Below are positions 16,629 to 64,000 of a DNA stretch of 64,000 bases, in pieces. The position numbers and the translations under genes were made by a program. This DNA is from Camelus ferus (taxonomy: Eukaryota). Location of the stretch: the NCBI RefSeq assembly GCF_009834535.1, contig NC_045696.1, forward strand, positions 77,750,001-77,814,000. The letters run 5' to 3'. The notes under the pieces are model-generated. The model did no database searches, was not told the origin of the DNA, and saw nothing but the letters and a program-made list of their open reading frames with translations. Position 1 is the stretch's first letter. Every line of letters begins with the position of its first letter.

Positions 16629-19444
16629 GACTCTATTACCTTTGCCAACAAAATAAAGATGAGGTTCTACTTGGTGTGTATATATGACTGTATCAAAGAG
16701 TACACAAGTATAATTCTCAAGTTATGAGTGGAAGAAAATTTTCAACAACAACAAAAACACTTTAGCAGAGTGGAGGAAAAAAGTCTAATTATAAATTAAA
16801 TACATACTACTGTTATCCACATAAATTACTGAGAAAACATCTGAGAAAAACACAATCAAATTTAACAATGGATATGTGATAATAGATCTTTTTCTCTTTA
16901 TTCTATTTCTTTCCATTTTTTTAATAATGCACATGCATTATTTTTATAAATAAAAACACTGGAATTGAAAAAATATATGGCCTAAGTTTTTCATGGAACT
17001 CTCAGCTGAAAAACCTTTGGCTTAAAGCCAGAAGTTTTCCCTCATGCTCATAAAAGAAGCCGAACTTTACAATACACCTGCTTCCTCTCTTCTGTATAAT
17101 TTCTTTTTATATTCATGGAGTGAGCTGCAATTCAACAGCTTTTGTGGCCTTCTTCTCTCTTCTCCCCACTTGGTGTGGCATGAAAGACATTTCAAAAAAA
17201 CAATATAAACAACTCAATTGCTTGTTAAATTTTATGTTAAGGATATGCACTGACCCAGAAAAATCACCAGACAGCCAGACATGCTGCTGAAATTTAAGCA
17301 TCCCTGCCCACCTACTTGTTGTTTACAGAGAAAGCAAGCAGTGACCTGAAATTGCTTTGCTCTTCTCTGACACTTCAGCGAGAGAAACCAAGCCAGGAGG
17401 AAGGAATGGGAGCAGGTGACGTTTTTCCTACGCTATTCTACTTGTTTCGAGTAGAGCCGATTTGTTATAAGGATTAAGAACAAATTTATCACAGTTCATT
17501 CATGTATCTGAATGTAGAGGTGGGCTTCAAACACAGCAGAAGTGTGATCTGTTCTGTCACCATGTCACAATGCTTCGCCCTCCTGGGAAGACCCGTTAGT
17601 GAACATCCACTGGCTTTAGCAGTAAGGGGTTCTGCAATGTCATTCCTCAAATATTATGAACATTTTAGCTGAATTTACATTGAAAGAAAATATTTTTGTC
17701 CTGAATGTGACAAAAAAGATCTCCTTTTGTTACTGTCTTTCTCTCTCTCTCTCTCTCTCTTTTTTTTTTTCTGATATCCCAGCAGCAAAGAAGCATTCGT
17801 GTAAGAAAAAAGACATCTCACAGTTACTCTGATCTTCCTCAGACGATCAGACAGGGGAAAACAATACTCATCCTCTACACATTAGGATTTTTCCTTCCCA
17901 TGGCTCTGCTTTTCAAGCAAACTTCACCAAATCCTAGTTAGAGTAGTTAGAGTACCTGCTTCTAACCAAGGTGCTGGGGCATGAAATATTAATTTGTATT
18001 TCTGAGGAATTCTTCAACAGATTTAAATTATTTGGCACTTTAAAAAGAAATAGCTCAGTACCCTTTGGAGTTGCAAGGCTTTTTGTTGTTGTTTTTCGGT
18101 TACTTTTCAGCCCTTTCCTTCTGTCCCCTCCGAGGATACATAAAGTATAATGGCAGTGTAGGAAGCAGTTTGATAAAACTCACTGAGGGGATCAGATGGT
18201 TAAGCTCCAGGATGGGAGAATCTGGTCCTGAGTGTAAGCACTCTCTCCTGCCAGCCTTGGGAGGATAAACTTTCCTTTGGATTTTTTCTTACCAAGAGAT
18301 GCTAAGCAATAGGGCCACACTCTAAAATAAAGTGATGCTTTTATTCACCCTGAGAAGATGCTCTAGTAATGTGCTTCATAATTTAATAATTTATTATAAA
18401 ACAGAGAAAACATAGGTTGCAATTTATTGTCCCACAATATCAAAAATGGGAGGCGATATTGCAGAATTATAATTAAATGTTGGTTTAAAACAACATTTGG
18501 GTGAAAAACAAGCATTTGACATTGCAGGTGTTTTCAGGCTGAGAAGCAAATGAAGGTTAGACAAAGGAGGCTGGATAAAACAGTGATAAGACCTATGCTT
18601 AACTTAGAAAAGAAGGCAAATGAGCCTGTCTTTTGCCTTCCTCCAAATTTCCATCTTTTTCTTTTTTCTGATAACCCCAGTTACTCTAACAAAGTCTTCA
18701 ACCTGCATTAAACATACACGCATAACATGATTTCCTCAAAAAAAATTTCCCTACTTCCTACTGATGCATCCATTTTCTCTTTAATGGGAATAAAATCTTC
18801 CCTATCTACACCCAGAAATAAAGGCTTAGAAAACAAATGCAGATTTGAACAAACACATTAATTGAAAGATGGTTCTCAGATACTTTGTCTAGAGTAGCAC
18901 AAATGACTCAGATACCTAAGCAGCAGTTAGAAGACAGGACACTAGAGAGTCTTCACTGAGGGAGGAAGAAACAAAGAACAGAGGAGCTGGCGGCATGGAT
19001 GTCGTGAGCAGATGACTGGCATCAGGTCCCTGCTGATTCTGACGAGGGCTTGGAGGCGAGATAACGTGAAAGGGAAAGGGTTTCTCCTTAACAGGGTATG
19101 CAACAGAAGACATGTTTTATGATTTTGGGATCCTTTACTGAGCTCCACCTCAGCATGGAGAAGCAGAACCTGCAAGTATGCCTAAGCCAGGCATGTTCAT
19201 ACAGAGGAAGCTGTGTGACTCATGCTAACCACACTGGCTCCATATTCCTGTTATAATGCTCTAGGTCTGCCTTCTCACTCTCTTGTATGGGCCATAGCGG
19301 TAGTCCTCCAACTGGTCTCAGTGATTCTTTTCTAGCTTGTTTCACTTCTGGAGTCACCTTTCTAAACGGCAGATCTGGTGAGAATGTTTCCATGCTTAAA
19401 ATTTTAATTTTTCTTCATTATACAAGGAATCACACCCCAAGCAT

Positions 19445-19780
19445 ATGATACAAATGAACTTACTTACATAACAGAAACAGACACACAGACATAGAAAAAA
19501 AAAAACTTATGGTTACCAGAGGGGAAACAGGGGCAATAAATAATGAGTTTGGGATTAGCAGATCCAAATTACTATATAGAAAACAGATAAACAACAAGGT
19601 CCTATTGTATAGCACAGGGAACTATATTCAATATCTTGTAATAATCCATAATGAAAAAGAATATATATGTGTACAACTGAATCACTTTGCTGTGTACCAG
19701 AAACTAACACAACACTGTAAACCAACTATATTTCAACCAAAGGAAAAAAAGATAAACAGATACAAGTAGAGAAGAATCTG

Positions 19781-21303: not shown

Positions 21304-22015
21304 AGAATTAAGTCCTAAATTCTGCACTTGAAATCTGAGGCCCTTCAGAGTTTGGCCTTAGCCTATCTCTCCAGGTCCTTTAGTTTCCCAGCACTGTACT
21401 GAAACTGGTACTTTCTGAATCATAGCACAGATGTTCATCAAGCCCTGTAACTCTGCTATTCTTGTGTATAATGATTATCTACTGATCCTATAAAGCCCAG
21501 CTCAATGATCATGTCCAGGCTTCTCAGTCAGAATTAAATGCTCATCTTCGTCCTACTGAAATACACACACAGGTATAAATACTTATCACCATGTTGGTAA
21601 ATTCAGATCATGGGACAATGCCTATATTATATTTCAATAAAACTCTGAAATAAATGAATGATTCCTAATATTAACTAATCATAATTGAATGTTAAACATT
21701 AATTAATTAATGCTAAGGGACTATGGTTCCACAAAGAATTTATCCAGTAATGGATACAAATATATGTGCATGTGCATTAGCCAGATTAATATTCTCTGTC
21801 TTATCTTATCATTTTTTCTTATCTATTTTCTTCTTCTCAATAGTCACTATGTATAAACAAGAAAACTGCCAAGATTCATATTTTCTGAAGAGAAGCTTAC
21901 AGGCTATTAAAATCGAGAAAAATTCTTATACACATATTAATAAAATTCAGATCTACATGATTATACATTAACTTATATGTTAACATATATACATACATAT
22001 ATATGTAACCTGAAT

Positions 22016-22141
22016 TATAAAAATTACACGTTTATTGTGTCTTTACAACTGATGGAAATTCATATAAATGCTGGTAAGTATAAAAATTACACGTTTATTG
22101 TGTCTTTACAACTGATGGAAATTCATATAAATGCTGGTAAG
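22016..22141. repeat. Perfect 63-bp tandem duplication
   Basis: tataaaaattacacg…aatgctggtaag occurs at 22016-22078 and again at 22079-22141. Confidence 0.95.
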
Positions 22142-35050: not shown

Positions 35051-37329
35051 AGACTTCACTTATAAGCAAATTAAAGACATCAAGTTGGCTGAAACAGGCT
35101 AAATTTGAGCATCAACCAAAAAACAAAGTAAATAGACTGGGGAAGCAAACGAAGTGGGAGTAGAAAAGTACACAGAAAAGGCAAGAGATTAACAAAAAGA
35201 AGGGAAGGCTACGAAGAGTAAGACCATGTGTGCAGGAAAAGGTAAGAGAAGCCAGACTGAAAAAGAGAGGGAAGAGAAAGTTGAGGAAAGAAGCGAGAGA
35301 AAGAGCGTAACATACAGAAAAAGAGTTTAGAAGAGCTGCAGACAGAAGTGAACAGCTGCAAGCAGGGAGGAGTCAGTCTGTACTCACTCTTCTTAACTCC
35401 TTCAGTCAAATATGGAATCCCTCTAGGCTACTGCTTCCTCTTACTGCAGAGAAACGGATTAAACTACCTGGGGTCAATGATCTGTGTTTCTCTAAAGGTC
35501 AGTGAATCTATGAATGCTTCTTTTCAATCAGTCCATCAGACAGTCTGGGCCAGACACATCGCTGGACCCAGCACTCTCAGGGGACCATCCTCTCACCAAA
35601 GAAGCTCCTGATCTCATTCTGACCACTTGGATTGTCCAAAATCACCCATGAAGAGGTGAGAGTCTGCAAACCAAAGACAGTCAGTGGAGTCACCATTACT
35701 AACCTGAGCCATGTGCCCAGACGGGAAGAAGTACTTTGAATTTAACCTTAATATTTTGCCATGATCAATGTCCTAATCTAATTTTATTGTTTCAAAGACT
35801 AGGTCCCAGCAACACTGACACAAATTTTCTTAAATTCAACTTTCATGTACACACACATACACACGTCATAAGTTAAAAATTCTCTAAACATGGAATATGT
35901 GTAAAATTTCTAATGTTCTGATAAGAATTATCAATAAATAAAAATAAAGTGATGAGATTTAAAGAAAAACTGAAAATGACCTTGTGCATAAAGCTACAGT
36001 TATTTTTTCCTACATTGCCCACATACCAGTACCACATAAATACTACACTATGTAGACTTAAAATGTTCTTCACTGATAAGAGAAAATTGGGTCAGAATAA
36101 TTTCAATGCTAAAGCTATTGACAAAGAGACTGTAGAAATCGAAACACTAATAAATAATTTGTTCCCTTTTAGAATTTTCTCCATTCATTTAAAATCACAG
36201 GGACGTGAGCATCGTGAAAGGAGTCTGAAGACAACTACAGCTCTCTGGAGACGAACATAAAAGCCAGAGCTTTCATGAGGAAGCAGTAGCAATCTTTACA
36301 AGCTAAGTGGCCTTGGCATCAATTGTGTTTTCACTTTTTAGTATTTATGAGACTCCAAGGCCTATTGTTGTTGCTTTCCTTGTAGTTTCGATAGAAACAT
36401 TTGCTTAATAAAAAAAAAACAGATAAAACTATAAGCCTCTGTGTGACACACAATAAGCTATGAAACAGATGTAGAAGACCTGAAACTCCAGATGCAACTG
36501 AAGTTGGATGAAGAAGTTGTGGAGAGACAGGGGAAGAAATAACATTCAGGCCACAGCCACCATCCACAGCTATGTGAGCCCTAGATATGCCATTTCCTTC
36601 TGACAGTTACAGTTAGAGCATATGGTTACCAATACTGCTCTTAACATTTTAATTATTCATTTAAAAAAGTCATCTAAATTAGTCCCCGCAATGGTTTTGG
36701 ATGTCAAAATATTCTACTTAAAGGAATGTGGCATTATCATTGAAATTAGAAGAGACAAACTTATCCATCTCCTCATCTTCCAAAATTACCTTGGAAATAA
36801 AATTACGAAACAGGGGATGGAATAACACAACATATTAAAGCTACGAGCCTTCATATTAAATGGATAATTAAAATATCATGTTACAAAGGAAACAACAGAT
36901 GAGCGAATCATCTTCACATCTTTATTTTTTAAACTTAGGAAACTAATTACTTATGTTTAGAGTAGTTAGATTTTATCCTATCTTTCTTATCATGCTTTTT
37001 AATCCATTCCCTTATATTTGTTTAAAATGTAAATTCTGGATAGCTTAGACTCTAATTATAGACTCTATTTGTTTTGTAAAAGAATACAGAAACTACTGTA
37101 AGTGAACATTAATATCAGTTTTGCCATTATGTGTAAATTATGGCTCATTTTAAATTTTGTTAAGAAATCTTACCCACTTACAGCTGTTCCTTAACTTTGA
37201 CAGTCATCAAAGCTGAAATATTTAGAACCTTTGCAAAGGAAACTATGAAAAATAGGAATGAGTACCACAGCATTATACACTGCATTCTGGAAGCAGTGGG
37301 AGATGGAAAGCATTTTAAAATGATGTCAC

Positions 37330-37683
37330 GGGGCTGAGCCAAGATGGCGGAGAAGAGGGACTCACAGCTCGCCCTCTCCCACAAATACACCAAGAATTAC
37401 GTCTACAAACCCACTGAATCGCACAGAACACCTACTGAACTCTGGCAGAGTGTCTCTCGCTTTGAAATACAGGAGGAGTCTCACAAAATCTGATAAACAA
37501 GTTCATACTGTATAGCACAGGGAACTGTATTCAATGCCTTGTAGTAATTTATGGTAAAAAAAATATGAAAAGGAATATATGTATGTTCATGTATGACTGA
37601 AGCATTGTGCTGTACACCAGAAATTGACACAATGTTGTAAACTAACTATACTTCAATAAAAATACATACATTAAAAATTAAAA
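37330..37683 (+). mobile_element. Bipartite L1: about 163 bp of L1 5' UTR head joined directly to about 190 bp of L1 3' UTR and tail
   Basis: Begins ggggctgagcCAAGATGGCGG (L1 5'-end YY1 motif) and switches at 37492/37493 to ataaacaag…tgtatagcacagggaactgtattcaat…cttcAATAAA. TT/AAAA site with candidate TSD taaaatga (37316-37323 / 37684-37691). Confidence 0.85.
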
Positions 37684-37699
37684 TAAAATGACTTAGAAA

Positions 37700-37965
37700 C
37701 AGCCTAAGCATAGGGAAAAGAGCCCAGAAACCTGGTGCTAGAGTGCCAGGTTTGAATCCAAATTCCATCACTTAATAGATGTGTCATATTGGCCAAGTTA
37801 CCTGACAGCTCTGTGCCTCAGTTTCCTCTTTAGTGAGAGAAGTAATACTAGTACCTTCCTCGTAAGTACCAGTTATAAGTACCTGAATTACATTAAATGC
37901 ATTAGTAAGTTTAAAGGATTTAGAACAAAACAATATCTACCACAAATGTTACACGAATAGTTGTT
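37700..37965 (+). mobile_element. MIR SINE
   Basis: ggtttgaatccaaattccatcacttaatagatgtgtcatattggccaagttacctgacagctctgtgcctcagtttcctc. Confidence 0.8.
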
Positions 37966-40972: not shown

Positions 40973-41149
40973 TACACACTACTACATATAAAATAAACAA
41001 GGACCTACTGCATAGCACAGGGAACTATATTCAATATGTTGTAATTACCTATACTGAAAAAGAATGTGAAAAAATCTATAAATATCTGAATTACTTTCCT
41101 GTACACCTGAAACTAACCCAATTTTGTAAATCAACTATACTTCAATAAA
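40973..41149 (+). mobile_element. 5'-truncated L1 3' end with 18-bp TSD
   Basis: aacaaggacctactgcatagcacagggaactatattcaat…cttcaataaaa; TSD aaaatta(g/c)cttaatgtta at 40955-40972 and 41150-41167. Confidence 0.9.
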
Positions 41150-42664
41150 AAAATTACCTTAATGTTAAAGTTCACACACACACACACACACACTCGTACT
41201 ACTGTGTATCAGTTTAATCAGAACTGATATCAAAGTCATCTAACTTAAAAAGAATTAATAAGAGTTTCAAAACACTTAAGCTACCTGGTTTTCATTCACT
41301 GAGTTACCAGATGATATTGAAACAAATTATGCAAAACCCCCTGCTATATAAAAGCTATAATACTCCTTTATCTCATTATCATCTAAATGTTAAATGCTCC
41401 ATTATAGAGGTAAATTGGGTTTAAAATAGAATATTTCGAGCAGAAGAGCAAAAAATATGAGGTTAAACAGAGTGAAGAACTGAAGCTTCAAATTGTGGTA
41501 TAAAGCTTGAGAGGGCATGGTTTGATCTCTTGATATACTAAGAAAGCCAGACCCTCTGACATGCCCTATGGAGAGTAAATACACTGATCTGGAACAAAAA
41601 TTATGTGAAACAGCTGTTAAGTGACAGAAGAAATGTGCATTGGACCACCAGCTTGTCATAAATATTGCACTCTTAATCAGAAGGCATCTGTCTTTTCATT
41701 TTCTCTTCAGCAATCTCTGCATTGTATTTAATCTGCTCAGAATGCTTCTCCTAACAGGTGCAACAATGTTTACAAATTGAAAACCTTATTTAAATGAAGC
41801 TTACAACTAGAGACGTTTCAATTAACAAGGTGATAGCTTATGAGAAGGAATAATTCTAACATTTGGCAAACCCATAAATTTGTGAAATTTAATTATTAGA
41901 AAATTAGAGTATAGATGCCAAGAATTGCTAAAGATGAGAGGTGTGTCAAACAACTTTATGTAATATATTAGCACCCAGAGAAACTACAGGGAAGGTTACT
42001 GGGGGGAATGTGGACAAAATTCCAGGAATAGATATTATAAAATGCCATGTTCATCAAAAAATAATTTTAGAATAGTGTCCCATATGTCCATAAAAAGTGG
42101 TGTCTGTGGCACTAGTTTCTTTTCCTACAGGTAATTTTTCTCTTATTATCATTATTCACTTGCTGAAACTGAATATAAGAGTTTCATAATCAATTTTGCT
42201 GGATTAAAAAAAAGCTGTCAGATATATTAAGATTTGCATTATAGTCACCTAAATAAATTTTAAATAGGTAATTTCTTCAAACACATGAGTATAATTTAGC
42301 TTAGAATACATACACAATTTTTAAAGTGAAAGGGACTGTAGAATTACCAACTTTAACTTTTTTACTCAAAATGACTGCAAAGATAGTGAACTCAGTTTCT
42401 CCAGCAGCCCAGCAGCTAATATAGTGGACACAAGTCTGGTCAAACATGTGGCCCTTCAGGTTGATCATTCATTTCCTAATTTTTGATTGCAAGGTGTGTT
42501 GAAGACATTTTCTTCTTAATATCGTAATTGTAAATCACAATTCAGTCAAGTTTCCTTGGGGAAAAAGAATCCAGTGCGTCCAGAAATCCCAGTTTTCAAT
42601 AAAGCACAGAACAAACAAAAGGTGTGTGTGGACGGGATCTTGCCCTTGGCATTCCAATTTGCAG

Positions 42665-44242: not shown

Positions 44243-44340
44243 CTTACAGAGGAAGTAAGGAAGGAGGTGAGGGTAGAGGGCTACAGAGAAACTTACAGAG
44301 GAAGTAAGGAAGGAGGTGAGGGTAGAGGGCTACAGAGAAA
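44243..44340. repeat. Perfect 49-bp purine-rich tandem duplication
   Basis: cttacagaggaagtaaggaaggaggtgagggtagagggctacagagaaa at 44243-44291 and 44292-44340. Confidence 0.95.
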
Positions 44341-45193: not shown

Positions 45194-45340
45194 CTCTAAT
45201 GCTTTGATGTCTTCATAAGCAAACCTCACAGTGGGAACTCCAAGATGGTTGATGAAATAATTGGCGTCATCTTGCATCTGTACAGAGCTTATGTTGGTCT
45301 CTGGACACTGACCTCTTCTGGAACAGTTGAAATTATTTTT
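45194..45340 (-). CDS. NAALADL2: Internal coding exon (147 bp, phase 0/0) of NAALADL2; encodes KNNFNCSRRGQCPETNISSVQMQDDANYFINHLGVPTVRFAYEDIKALE (probably exon 10 in human numbering)
   Basis: Minus strand reads ttatatttttcag|AAA AAT AAT TTC ... TTA GAG|gtaatt, 49 codons. It matches recalled human KNNFNCTRRAQCPETNISSIQIQGDADYFINHLGVPIVQFAYEDIKTLE and lies within ORF 45152..45373. Confidence 0.96.
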
Positions 45341-48837: not shown

Positions 48838-49847
48838 GTACCCTCAAGCCTGTGTTTATTTTGTTCTTTTTTTCCTAACTAGTTTCTGAGTAAAATTTAA
48901 AAAATAACCCAATTTTTATATTGGATTTCTCTTTCCCAAGTCATTTCACCTTGGGACTTTCCTTAAGAGGAGAACATTCCTGGCACAGGAACTCTATTCT
49001 CTAAATCTTTTCATTATTCATTACTTTAAAATCTAGGCCAAATTTGCAGACCTTAAGTGATCCTAAATCTGCATTCTGATTTCATGTAATTGTTTCCCAC
49101 ACAGCACTTCATTGGACGGTAATAGCTCCACCCCAGGTAACAGATGCTGGTCTACTCAGCCTCTGTTAAGCATGAATATCTGAGAGGGAAGTGGAAAGAG
49201 AAGTTATTTCCTTCATTTCTCTAGAAGATAGCCATCATGGGAAAGAGAAGGTTGGTAACAAATTTGTGCAGGTCAATCACTTTTTAAAATGTATTTACAA
49301 GGCTGAGTAAATTCAAACAGAGTATTTCATCCAAGGAGTTCAAATTTTTCTAGTAACACTAAGTGTGGAACATTTTTGTTCCAGCTTCTCAATTAAACAA
49401 GTTCAGGCAAAGACCACAGTTATGTCACTTGTTTAATTTCCTACTCCTCATCTGTTGAAGACCTGAGATGAAATTAGCATCTCAGTCTTCAAGCTGCAGA
49501 GTATACTTGTAAGCTAAAAGGCAAAACCTCACAGCAAATTATTATGTAAGTGAAATATAAAGAGATTAAGTCAGCATTTGCATTAATTGAATAGCAATAC
49601 CAAGACGCAATGACAGGTTTCTAAAGTATTTAAAAATCTGTTTAACAATTAATTTTATTTATCCTACACTCTGCTTTTGCCTGCATACATAATCATTCTA
49701 CATACATGAGAAATCTAAGGTGGTTACTTACTCTAACAGCAAGAAAAGTATACCATTCAAAATGAAAGTACCATATTCTACATATTATAATAAAATTAAG
49801 TCACTGTCTTTTCATTCCACTGTTATTTTGTAACTTCAGTTACAGGA

Positions 49848-49940
49848 CATATGTATGTATATGCATGACTGAGACATTATCCTGTACACTAGAAATTGAT
49901 ACACTGTAACTGACTACACTTCAGTCAAACAAACAAGAAA
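49848..49940 (+). mobile_element. Very short camelid-type L1 3' tip
   Basis: atatgtatgtatatgcatgactgagacattatcctgtacactagaaattgatacactgtaactgactacacttca, homologous to 53440-53520. Confidence 0.75.
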
Positions 49941-53095: not shown

Positions 53096-53378
53096 ATTGA
53101 GTCCCATTCCCCCTACCCCCAATATTACATTTCAGTCCCCTCTGAACTGTAAGTTCTATGCTCCCAATTCTGAAGTATCCTTGATTGTAAGGAATAGTAT
53201 CAATTCAAAAACAGCTTTTGTTGGATAGTAGGAAAGAAAGAATCTAACAGGTATCTGCCAGCTTCAGAAATGTTAACATTTTACAAAATGACCACAAGTA
53301 GAAAGACAAGGTATTTGAGTTGTATTGCTGATAACCATTTATTAGAAAAAGGTCAATTTAGGATCATCAGAAATATAT

Positions 53379-53527
53379 AGCCCAGGAAACTGTATTCAAT
53401 ATCTTGTAATACCTTTAATGAAAAAGAAAATGAAAATGAATATATGTATGTATATGCATGACTGGGACATTGTGCTGTACAACAGAAATTGACACATTGT
53501 AACTGACTGTACTTCAATTAAAAAAAA
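53379..53527 (+). mobile_element. 5'-truncated camelid-type L1 3' end
   Basis: aactgtattcaatatcttgtaatacc…atatatgtatgtatatgcatgactgggacattgtgctgtac…cttcaatt(A)n; candidate TSD agaaat(a/g)tat. Confidence 0.85.
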
Positions 53528-56500
53528 AGAAATGTATGAAGAAGCATTGGGGAGGCGACCCATGAAAGGAACTGCCACTTAATTTATGAGGGAAGAACAG
53601 GTTCTCTTAGAGAGGATTTGGGAATGGATACAACAGTATGAGACCCTTGTTCAGACAGAGGTCACTGAAGTAGGCATCTCAAATAACCAGGAAGACCCAG
53701 GGAGAGAAAGAGCTAGCAAAAAGACAGTGAGGAAAACTGAAAACAAAACTCCATTCATTTAATAATTATGATTTCCTTAGGCACTATTCTTGTTTACATG
53801 CTTTGTGTGTGTTTATATTTTCTAGACGAGTATCAAATTATCATCAAAATATGCTAAGGATGGACCACCTCACTTACTACAAGAATACAGTTACATAAGG
53901 TTCCATCATTTACAAGCAGACATCATATTAGATCATAGTACAACCCTATGAGGTGGGTGAAACAAGTATTACTCTCTTTTACAGACTAAAAGCTTTGTTA
54001 TCTTCTAGAGATGTAAGGATAGCAAATGGAATGGCAGGCAGGGATTTCTAACTCAGTTACCTTGTTGCCTCCCTGCCCCCTCCCCAACTATCTCCACCCC
54101 TGGTCCAGTGATTTTTCTCTCCAGCTTCACTAAGGGCATAAGGAAGGAGTTCACTTTGCACATAAGGAGCTGGTAGGCTGCTGACTAATCAACTAAATTA
54201 AAATTACCTTTCAGTTTAAGAGACCTAGTGACTTAAAAATAATTTACCAGGTAAAAAGACTCCATAGATCCTTTGGCCATTTCTGTAACAGGTTTCCTGT
54301 TGGTCAGTCCAATAGCTAAACCCATTTCTTCATAAAATGCAAACTATGTACAGAATAACAACCCCAGAGCCCTTCCAAAGCTGTACTCTGAGTATACCTA
54401 AATGAAACAGTGAGCATAGTGAAAAGGTAAAGCAGAACCATCCAAAATGACCTTTGGCCAAAGCACTGGATGAAAGCACACTCCCCGTGGGCGCAATTCC
54501 TATAGGACCTTTATTGACCGAAAGGATCAAGATATAGATTTTACGTCTCAGTGAAGGATAACAATTCTGCTTCACATCGCTGTTCCATGCTGAGGAATTG
54601 GCTGACATAACGTAACTTCAGCTATTATTTCACCAGCCTTCTTGAGGTTTGTCTTAAATAGCTTCTCTTAGCCTCACGGGCAATGCTATTTTAAATAATA
54701 CAGTGTCAGCATTTTAGTGATATATTCCAGCTGCCAGGCGTTAAAAAAAATTAACTGAAAAACCTAACTGATTTTCAATTCAACATTAACTGTCTGAGGC
54801 TCCAAATATTTTTAATGAAATATTTAAACAAAATCTCCTGTAGATGAAACAGTTTGGTAACTTCCCTTTCAAAACAAAAATCAAGCATTTCAAAAAAACT
54901 AAACCCCAAAGCAAGGAAACAACTGGAGTCACTTTGCATATATTTAGCATCATTCAGTAGACAGCCAGAGAAAGTCTGTTGTCCTCTCTGACCAAGGTTA
55001 CTGGGCAGTTGTAAATCAGGAGGGTGCTCTCAGGGGTTTTTTTAGAAGTAATTCATTTAATTTTAGGAAGACACAGGGAGAAAAAGCTGAAAAATGCAGA
55101 CTTGGCACACAAGAGGGCAAAAAGACGTGGGTGGCAAACCATCACATATTACCATTTCAAGCAAGTTAGGTGCCAAGCGTGAGAAATCAGGCAGAGGAAA
55201 TGACACCAGCAGCAGTAATGTGTCTGACCCTGACAGATGACAGCATCATGGCATAACCTCCAAGCCCTGGTCCTACACAACTGCTGGACTAGGGATGGTT
55301 TTGCTAGAATGAATTCACCGGAGCTTTGTAGCCACCACTGTACCTACGAAGCACTGTGCATAGGATACCCAGACACCCCCCATGACTCTCGCCCCAATGC
55401 CAATCCCCACATGCTAAGTTTCTTTGCACCAAACCTAGATCCATTATTTTGGTCAGGATGTACCAGGAAGTCTTGCATTTATATAAGCTGTTTTAACTTA
55501 ATTCTCTTTTGTATATTTTCTGCCTCTCCAACATGATTTTTGAGGATAGAGTTTTGTCTATCTTTCTACTGACCCAGTAGTATTGATCAGCACAATAAAA
55601 TGGGTACTATTAAAGTTTGGAAAACTGAAGTCCATCCAATCAGATAAACTTTTGCCAATGGGAGGGATTCGTAAGGAGAAGAGAAGAAAGGAGCTACACA
55701 AACACCATCTGGCTTAGCCTAGGTTTGGACCTGAAAATGATTGCACTCAGAATGCCAAAGATGCTGCAGGAAGTTTGAGGTTGACTTCAGGTAATTCTGA
55801 GTCACAACTATACTGGAAAGCATTTGCTTTCTTAATTCCTTAGGGGATAAAACTGGCTTTCAAGTAAACTATGTATCCCATTAGGTACTTGTAGAAATCA
55901 GTAACTGTGTACGGATACCACCAAGCACGTTGTGCTGAGTAGGTGCTTGAGATAAATGTTAAAGAACAATCAAAGCAAGACTCACAAATAAACCACAGAT
56001 GAGACAGACAATTTTGCATTCTGCCTTAAAAAACATTGACGTTTCTTTCTAGCAGTATGACCTTAGGGCAATTACTTAACTTCCTAAAGCCTTGAATTTC
56101 TCAAATGTAAAAAGAGAATTGTATACAATATAAGGCGGCTAAGAGGAGTCAATTAAAACATTCTATCTACTCCATCATAAATACTTAGTGCATAACTATC
56201 CGCATTATGAATTATAATCACTACTAATGCAACCAACACGTATACCCACACATCTCACACACCCACACAGCCCACATACCTCCTATATTTTTGGCAATGT
56301 CTTCCTAACAAATCTCTTGAAACTATAATTTCTCCTGCCTTCTAAGATGTGGAATACTCATATTTAGAAAGCTAAGTCTGTTCAAGATTTTCTAACTCAC
56401 TTTTTCTTAATTAACTTTGGTGGACTTTGGTTTTAAAGAGGGTTCTTTATATACTATTTGCCCCCAAGTTAATCTCTTTGGATTTTATGAGGTAATTCAT

Positions 56501-61476: not shown

Positions 61477-64000
61477 AATGAATCAATCAATACTCGTAAT
61501 TTTTTTTAAATGGAGACATCCTTTAAAAGAAAAATTAGATATATTTAAAGAGGACTATGTGGAAATGTTTAAATGATCAAATCGTGGGCCTAATTTTAAG
61601 GCTGTAATGCCAGCTACCGTTAACACCTGGGAACAGCTTCTGTCGTTAAAATATAAAAGGGTCCCAAGGATATAAATCATGTTTAGAGTTGTGCTGTTGG
61701 AAACAAACAAAATTTCACAATGTCAAACATTTACAAAAACCCAAAGCAATATATAATTATGGAAGAAACTGTTTAGTTCACTGCGTAAGTACAACAGCTA
61801 TATAGAGAAAGAAAAGATTCGTGTGGGGTTCAGCTGTTTGGGAAGATTTCATGGAGAGGATACAACTTAATTCAAGGACAGACAGAAGGATTTGGACTCA
61901 GGGAAAATAAAAAGGATCCCAGAAACATTTAGGTGAATTTTTTTTTCAAGGAACTTTAAAATATTTTCACCCTTTCTGACTTCTAGAACATTCTAACCCA
62001 AGATTATCCTAATTTCAATCATTTGGCTTAGAGCCAAGTAGTATAGGACAACGAAAATCTTAGTCTTCAGATTCTCAGGATTTATTCATTTTAGATATTT
62101 GAATAGCTCCAACTGGTATGTAATTGGTCAGAAGATAGCTAGAATTTATATAGATTCTTTTGGGGTTTTAAGTATCCTTATTCAGCATCTGCTACATTAA
62201 ATAAAAAAATGATTTCAATATTTCTATTTATTTTCTGGGGCCTTGATATGTTTAGCAAATACAAACTGAGCTATCACCATAAATGAAAGATAATTATTCA
62301 GATATAAACATGGATATTTCACAAGCTGCCAAAACTTCTTTCCATACATTGAGTGTTTTGAAAGGCAAGTAAAAGGAAAGCCTGAATCTTTAAGAGCAGA
62401 TTTAATTTGGTGCCATTTGATTCAGATCATAAAATTTTTTAAAATGATATAATATGTAATAAATAAAACCAATTTGTCACCAGCAGTAACTTTTAAAGTG
62501 CACCTACTTAAAATTAAATAAGATTATATTGAACTTTATTCCCCACTGAATTAAGCAATTAATTCCAGGAATTTCTAACATATCATCGGTATATGCTTGA
62601 ATCCTCACCTGTGAGAGATGATACAATGCATTATGTTCATCAGCATATGCTTGTAAGTCAATAAAGTGGAATAAAAACGAGACATAAGCAAAGAGGAAAT
62701 TTTAATATTATTGTGTAATGCATGCTTCACATCTTGTTATACTTTTATTAAATATTTAGCTGCTAACATAGAACTATTAAGACTGTGCGGCAAGAGAACA
62801 CATTTACAGAACATTTCTTTAACAACTTATAAAAAAGAAACATGTAGATTTTGACAAGCACGTAATATGGTAAATCTCAGTAATATGAAAGTATAGCTGT
62901 ATATTTCAACATAAAATGAATGTTCAACGTTTTAAAATAGCAATAGTGGGAATAAAGTAATTTAATAGGCAGACTTGCCCCTAGTCATTTGCAAACTACT
63001 GAAAATTTGCATGTAAAATTTAATACTCTATTTTCCTTTTCACTAGAGGCCTTATTGAAGAGAGGAAAAAGAGCAAATGTGAAGAAATCATACATTAGTG
63101 AGCATATTGTTCTTCTAGAAACTTCAAATAAAGGAATAACAACACTTTACTCCATTGCATTTCCAATGGACTTCATATTTCTACCTAACAAACACTTTCT
63201 TAACAATCATTCTGATGCCTGCTTTTGTGTTACACCTACAAAAAGTTTGGTTATAAGCAGTTATTATTCCTAATATATATATAGTATATAAGTAAGTTAT
63301 ATATTTTACATATTAAAAAATTACAGTTCATATAGACACACAGTTTTAAGCTAAAAAATGATACAATGTAAGCTATAGGCATACTGATGTACAGCCATAA
63401 AAATTCCACATTTTCCACAGAACAAAATTACTAGAGGATACCTAGAGAAAGAATTCCTTCCTGTACAGATTTTGTTATATATGAAGTGGTACATCAGAGA
63501 ATAATTCACACTTTAAGAGCGATGACACTTCCCAATTTCAATGAGACCTTTAATTTAATTGTATGAGGCAAGATCTAAAGACTACAAAGTGTTCAAGGAA
63601 AATGTGACGCCAGAAAATTTTGTCCCTCAATAGCTCTTTCACATCTCCAGCTGAAAAAAAATAAGGGGGTCTGACCAGAAATCCTAGAAGATAATGTATT
63701 TCCGGTCACTGCTATTTTAAAACGTGGAGCATTCATTTTATGTTGAAATATATGGTTTCTCGCTTAGGCAGCATCCTCTCTGATACTCTCTAAAACCCGG
63801 GGTTGCTGGGACCTCGTTTCCTCATTGCCTCTACTTTAAGCACAATCACTCCTAAAGCATCCGTCTCCTCCCTAGATGAAGGATCTCATCATTATTAATT
63901 TTTCTGGGTTGCCTGGTTCAGCTTATTGAATTTTCAAGTATTTCCTGCAGTTAAGCAAAATTCACCACCACCTCACCAAATGCATCATTCAGTCAGTGGC

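Follow-up and report, generated by a model that had tools for sequence, protein, structure and literature searches.

A 362-nt element made of the two ends of L1 in a Camelus ferus intron: a junction shared with other loci and a probable splice origin

The window, by which the whole 64,000-nt stretch of Camelus ferus DNA analyzed here is meant, contains two AG/GT-bounded coding exons at 45194-45340 and 101-196, both on the minus strand. The element described below lies on the plus strand inside the ~45-kb intron that separates them and, given minus-strand exons on both sides, was deduced to be intronic and antisense to some gene. The exons were located by matches to peptide motifs of NAALADL2, which is therefore the putative host gene; PDB searches with both exons returned no gene name. 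The first-pass annotation had placed the element antisense to NAALADL2; the intronic, antisense position is borne out, and the gene name is presumptive. A first set of host-gene motifs gave no match in the window, and reading frames near 39.5-40.0 kb, considered as a host exon, were rejected as they had no Pfam match. The features of the locus are as follows.

37330-37691, plus strand: whole bipartite element, 362 nt, L1 head and tail only, no ORF
37316-37323, plus strand: left candidate TSD copy, TAAAATGA, an exact 8-nt match to the right copy
37324-37329, plus strand: 6 unexplained bases between the candidate TSD and the L1 head (window sequence)
37330-37492, plus strand: start of the L1 5' UTR, ~163 nt, by homology; putative exon 1 of the spliced RNA
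37492/37493, plus strand: junction with one shared G, an abrupt head-to-tail change; putative splice point
37493-37662, plus strand: L1 3' end, last ~170 nt, with AATAAA at 37655-37660; putative exon 2
37663-37683, plus strand: poly(A) tail, decayed and A-rich (window sequence)
37684-37691, plus strand: right candidate TSD copy, an exact 8-nt match to the left copy

The L1 head, the abrupt switch at 37492/37493, the AATAAA and the A-rich tail were thus all present as had been claimed. Within the head, GGGG occupies 37330-37333 and CAAGATGGCG occupies 37340-37349 in the window sequence, the core of the latter being presumably of YY1 type. A 49-codon frame (37344-37490, plus strand) starts at an ATG within the CAAGATGG core, stops at the junction and is probably due to chance; a protein search with this frame found no homologue. 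The 3' half (37493-37662) is 74-82% identical to four other L1 3' ends in the window, and no second copy of the 5' half (37330-37492) was found within these 64 kb. The four other 3' ends, at 19400-19760, 40985-41155, 49840-49940 and 53375-53530, are 5'-truncated and all lie on the plus strand like the mini-L1. Elsewhere in the window, near-perfect tandem duplications were observed at 22013-22138 (2 x 63 nt) and 44243-44340 (2 x 49 nt), as were inverted repeats at 62900-62969 and 63683-63752 (70 nt each, 713 nt apart, 79% complementary) that resemble those at DNA transposon ends. Just right of the element, 37745-37840 is taken to be a MIR-like fragment.

The hallmarks of TPRT at this copy are clear for the poly(A) tail and for the L1 endonuclease-type site TT/AAAA at 37315-37320, and weak for the TSD, which is 7-8 bp long and offset. 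The 8-bp TSD proposed at first pass does match exactly. Its strength did not hold up: it ends 6 nt short of the GGGG and, since 115 of 3000 random 20-mers from the window match the tail end over an equal length, it is to be read as suggestive. The 6 bases between (37324-37329) are unexplained; they may be untemplated, transduced or the remnant of a longer TSD that has decayed. Alignments of the other copies begin at 37331-37339, and the join between left flank and head of the window copy is the same in organisms A and B (records 1 and 25).

Other copies were sought in contigs from 4 of 24 public runs (X1, X7, X18 and X23), which were aligned to 37140-37739 at 80% likeness; 32 pieces of 63,493 were listed, the longest of each run, so that the list is biased towards pieces that bridge the junction. 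Nine of the 32 listed pieces bridge it, aligned over 31 letters or more both in the head and in the tail, all four runs being represented, and 2 further listed pieces bridge it with 27 letters on the tail side. The bridging pieces are 85-93% identical to the window element and differ from it by 8-26 letters, and were therefore assigned to other loci. In a conservative chance test that charged every mismatch to the tail, eight of the nine reached P <= 1e-3; record 10 and the two shorter bridging pieces failed at this strict level. Records 6 and 16 probably come from the same locus, so that the nine pieces hold eight distinct patterns of mismatches and gaps. Three of the pieces carry foreign, unaligned 5' flanks (4372 letters in record 5, 486 in record 10 and 1549 in record 11) and hence are not duplications of the window locus. 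Recurrence of the same junction at other loci was thereby established, and the outcome that the first-pass annotation had named as speaking against its own reading, a single copy lacking GT/AG at the junction, is excluded by these pieces together with the splice-site evidence given below.

About 8-10 other loci with the junction were seen among the listed pieces, and some hundreds is a loose ceiling; none of the 32 listed pieces spans a whole second copy. Summed depth was ~780-840 times that of the flank at the head end and 210-240 times at 37492 (X1 and X7), which is such a loose ceiling and no copy number, as unspliced heads are included. Poly(A) loose ends behind 37662 occurred in 508, 532 and 159 contigs (X1, X7 and X18, respectively). 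The depths of X23 records 17 and 18 (183 and 162) were rejected as a sign of high copy number because tail-only X23 records have depths of 90-132, and presence in the RNA run X18 was rejected as a sign of expression because its contigs may include DNA or pre-mRNA. The copies have diverged enough from one another to suggest that the family is old.

The acceptor side could be read directly. Loose ends before 37492, that is, tails without this head, were found in 187, 212, 92 and 31 contigs in the four runs, and their consensus contains TACTAAC and ends in TA ahead of the shared G (agreement, 0.61-0.75). Ordinary L1 tails consequently read TAG exactly at the junction. TACTAAC is the ideal branch motif; its branch A lies 19 nt upstream of the 3' half with no AG in between, and a polypyrimidine tract is absent at the acceptor. 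A second class of tail, 3 nt longer, gave loose ends before 37496 in 281, 268, 122 and 36 contigs; it has TAG at the same place and, in 3 of 4 runs, TACAAAC instead of TACTAAC, as read from a mixed consensus. The AG predicted immediately before the 3' half is therefore present as TAG in the loose-end consensus of four runs and as CAG in a copy within the window, the L1 3' end in which CAG at 19584-19586 had already been noted to precede the homologous start. The 3' end near 41 kb (40985-41155) is, like the window element, one AAC short after the homologous acceptor position.

The two classes of tail appear to be mirrored in the bridging pieces: 3 of 11 have no inserted letters, as in the window copy, and 8 of 11 have 3-5. 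This hints at several parents, in an argument that is indirect because it uses the number of inserted letters and not their places and because contraction or slippage of AAC can recur.

The donor side was deduced from related heads. A metagenome scan with a motif from the head yielded 8 records with homologous heads, and the 5' half is 71-79% identical to the heads in these loci from other animals. In one record (L004), a piece downstream of the head matched solved L1 ORF1p in a PDB sequence search (E, 4e-5), by which the head was identified as the 5' end of L1; this search matched two of four L004 fragments, and Pfam recognized none of the four. GTAGGG stands at the aligned junction or 1 nt away from it in L003, L005, L006, L007 and L009, which differ pairwise by 15-27 mismatches and so count as distinct loci, or five of six distinct distant ones. 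The sixth, represented by three records that are identical over 276 nt (L002, L004 and L008), has AT instead of GT at the junction. Two further arrangements were observed in these records. On the minus strand of L004 (3328-3561 and 3164-3290), a piece of L1 ORF2 endonuclease immediately precedes the L1 head, reflecting nested or rearranged L1s, and L007 carries a 43-nt tandem duplication in the L1 head at 1029-1097 that includes the conserved motif.

A closer relative was available as a predicted protein, P0001. Up to the junction its alignment to the window is gapless, with 32 of 40 codons identical; beyond the junction none of 7 agrees. In place of the D-K of the window, P0001 has G-R, in the register in which G-R spans the GT in the five distant loci; the Gly gives a G at donor position +1, and position +2 is a wobble base, so that the T is unread. 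Of the GT that had been predicted right after the head, GTAGGG is thus found in five of six distant loci, and in the close relative the G is found and the T would be present by analogy. P0001 was treated as a chance reading frame over the L1 5' UTR and not as a gene. It was the sole match among 25 longer candidates in a protein search with frame 37330-37512, likewise in the HMMER library, with no match of near length; it belongs to a cluster of one member and had no credible Atlas match. Motif scans for close relatives in viral contigs gave 0, 1, 0 and 0 loci, and the one locus (L001) was rejected by eye as unrelated coding DNA. A metagenome scan with a motif from the side of the junction gave 0 loci, scans of prokaryote genomes gave 0 and 0, and plasmids and phages gave no match.

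The position of the donor was further supported by the runs. In records 3/27, 12 and 13 the alignment ends at 37490 and is followed by 66-226 unrelated letters, from which the junction was deduced to be the point where unspliced heads diverge from the element. Substitutions in other copies, T>C at 37491 in 30 X1 contigs and G>A at 37492 in 14, are those that a CpG at the end of the putative exon would leave as it decays.

Some contigs showed other arrangements of head and tail. Fourteen X1 contigs match the head as far as 37415 and from there on have a different, well-agreed sequence, which would be a second type of L1 5' UTR with the same first 85 nt. In record 12, an X18 contig with a depth of 45.6, an L1 tail (37656) is directly followed by an L1 head (37338-37490) and 226 unaligned letters, the head having been inserted in or after the tail of another element. 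X1 and X7 each contain one single-copy contig in which 37492 is connected to 37566 with the strand reversed; it represents a further locus, whose inversion stops precisely at the junction and may have come from twin priming on spliced or ordinary L1 RNA.

The favored explanation, to which we assign a probability of about 0.6, is recurrent splicing of L1 RNA from the 5' UTR into the 3' UTR followed by mobilization in trans, with more than one L1 variant as parent. In full-length L1 RNA, a cryptic donor ~163 nt from the start of the 5' UTR would sometimes be joined to a cryptic acceptor ~170 nt ahead of the poly(A) signal, with the remainder of the 5' UTR and both ORFs removed as one intron. The product would be a polyadenylated RNA of ~360 nt that encodes nothing. 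Since it would code for nothing, L1 proteins would have to be supplied in trans for its reverse transcription and insertion, as for a processed pseudogene. Repetition of these events from more than one parental variant would leave many old copies with the same junction, most of them presumably primary products of full-length parents. The splice origin proposed at first pass is supported by an acceptor that was read directly and by a donor that was read in distant relatives, with G at +1 in one close relative.

Several points speak against this explanation: the T unread in any close parent, the AT in one distant locus, the acceptor without a pyrimidine tract, TACAAAC in the second class of tail, and a TSD that is short and offset by 6 nt. 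The unread T and the bare acceptor would equally suit a founder whose ends were joined by a template jump of reverse transcriptase or by a DNA deletion and which was then copied, and such a founder would also account for the one G shared at the junction. This origin was nevertheless judged unlikely. Microhomology of one base is no more than chance would give, the break falls on AG with TACTAAC 19 nt upstream and has GTAGGG opposite it in five of the six distant loci, and two parental 3' classes among the copies would imply that the same bases had been joined on two occasions. Far less probable again is a single deletion after insertion of a full-length L1, or an assembly artefact, confined to the window locus. 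The lack of a second head in the 64-kb window would fit, as would the finding that no listed contig spans the window locus from end to end, but the same junction was found in loci that are 7-15% diverged and have other flanks, in four runs, and organisms A and B share the join of left flank and head at the window locus.

A more serious competitor to repeated splicing, although held only tentatively, is that one or a few splice-born copies kept enough of the internal Pol II promoter to be transcribed and seeded a SINE-like family that used L1 proteins in trans. The same junction at many loci is what this would produce, and the 163-nt head with its presumed YY1-type core is retained together with the poly(A) signal. 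An RNA dependent on proteins in trans would be expected to give few primary events, whereas 9 of the 32 pieces in the list cross the junction, a share raised by the bias towards long pieces. The summed depth at 37492, with unspliced heads counted in and thus no copy number, also points this way. Set against this, both parental 3'-length classes are seemingly present among the bridging pieces, and human SpIRE97/622 elements have a weak promoter and are presumed dead ends (PMC5860796). Recurrent splicing with mobilization in trans therefore remains the preferred reading.

Under recurrent splicing, SpIREs would be extended to a class that lacks both ORFs and is mobile in trans only, against the cis-preference of L1. 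Even if all copies are primary products, they would keep a record of how frequently germ-line splicing stripped L1 RNA of its content and so held L1 back. Had the copies instead given rise to one another, L1 would have bred a minimal parasite of its own through splicing, and the dead-end fate seen in human SpIREs would not hold as a general rule. Such elements are probably annotated as two repeat fragments, one 5' and one 3', and would thereby escape notice.

The element was compared with known systems. In the open-access literature no description of it was found; Repbase, Dfam and most subscription journals lay outside this search. Passages of PMC8605555 (whose supplements may hold a camelid repeat library), PMC6726744, PMC13174262 and PMC4398370 hold no relevant mention. 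Two known kinds of element were rejected. HAL1 is non-autonomous and derived from L1 like the mini-L1, but retains ORF1 (PMC5786205), and the 362 nt of head and tail hold no ORF1. A SINE headed by tRNA, 7SL or 5S, such as the short camel retroposon vic-1, which is listed as a simple ID-type SINE in PMC3531059, was rejected for want of a head derived from a small RNA: a search of the mini-L1 found no tRNA and one Rfam match with an E value of 0.68, far below the cut-off.

Bipartite non-autonomous LINEs without ORFs, namely RIME, NARTc, the Vingi derivatives and Bov-A, resemble the mini-L1 in keeping only the two ends of the parent LINE, with no ORF and in multiple copies, and their transcription is presumed to be by Pol II (PMC5786205). 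According to this 2018 survey, such LINEs had been reported for RTE, Ingi, Vingi and R2 only, by internal deletion, and the word "splice" is absent from it (PMC5786205). The mini-L1 differs in that its parent is L1 and its join fits splicing, and membership of this class requires self-propagation. That it is a splice-born L1 member of the bipartite LINEs, amplified as a Pol II SINE-like family, is accordingly a conceivable but doubtful assignment.

Short spliced human L1 transcripts that lack most or all coding sequence in transfected cells (Belancio 2006, as cited in PMC3091869) are the same kind of RNA as the proposed intermediate; they are cited there as transcripts and not as a genomic multi-copy family. 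The closest genomic parallel is found in the SpIREs, which derive from human L1 RNA spliced from a donor in the 5' UTR and retrotransposed, and which have TSDs of ~6-25 bp, a poly(A) tail and an endonuclease site and are often intronic and antisense (PMC5860796). SpIRE97/622 elements, which keep the first 97 nt, number 116 human copies, were judged evolutionary dead ends by those authors, and had ~7-fold promoter activity over empty vector compared with 267-fold for wild type (PMC5860796). Like SpIREs, the mini-L1 has the same junction at many loci, and its break in the 5' UTR is a putative splice donor. The SpIRE classes described have both splice sites in the 5' UTR or the acceptor in ORF1 and are near full length (PMC5860796), whereas the mini-L1 has its acceptor at the 3' end, has lost both ORFs, measures ~360 nt and would depend wholly on proteins in trans. 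The mini-L1 is thus best read as a SpIRE variant without either ORF, outside the two described classes.
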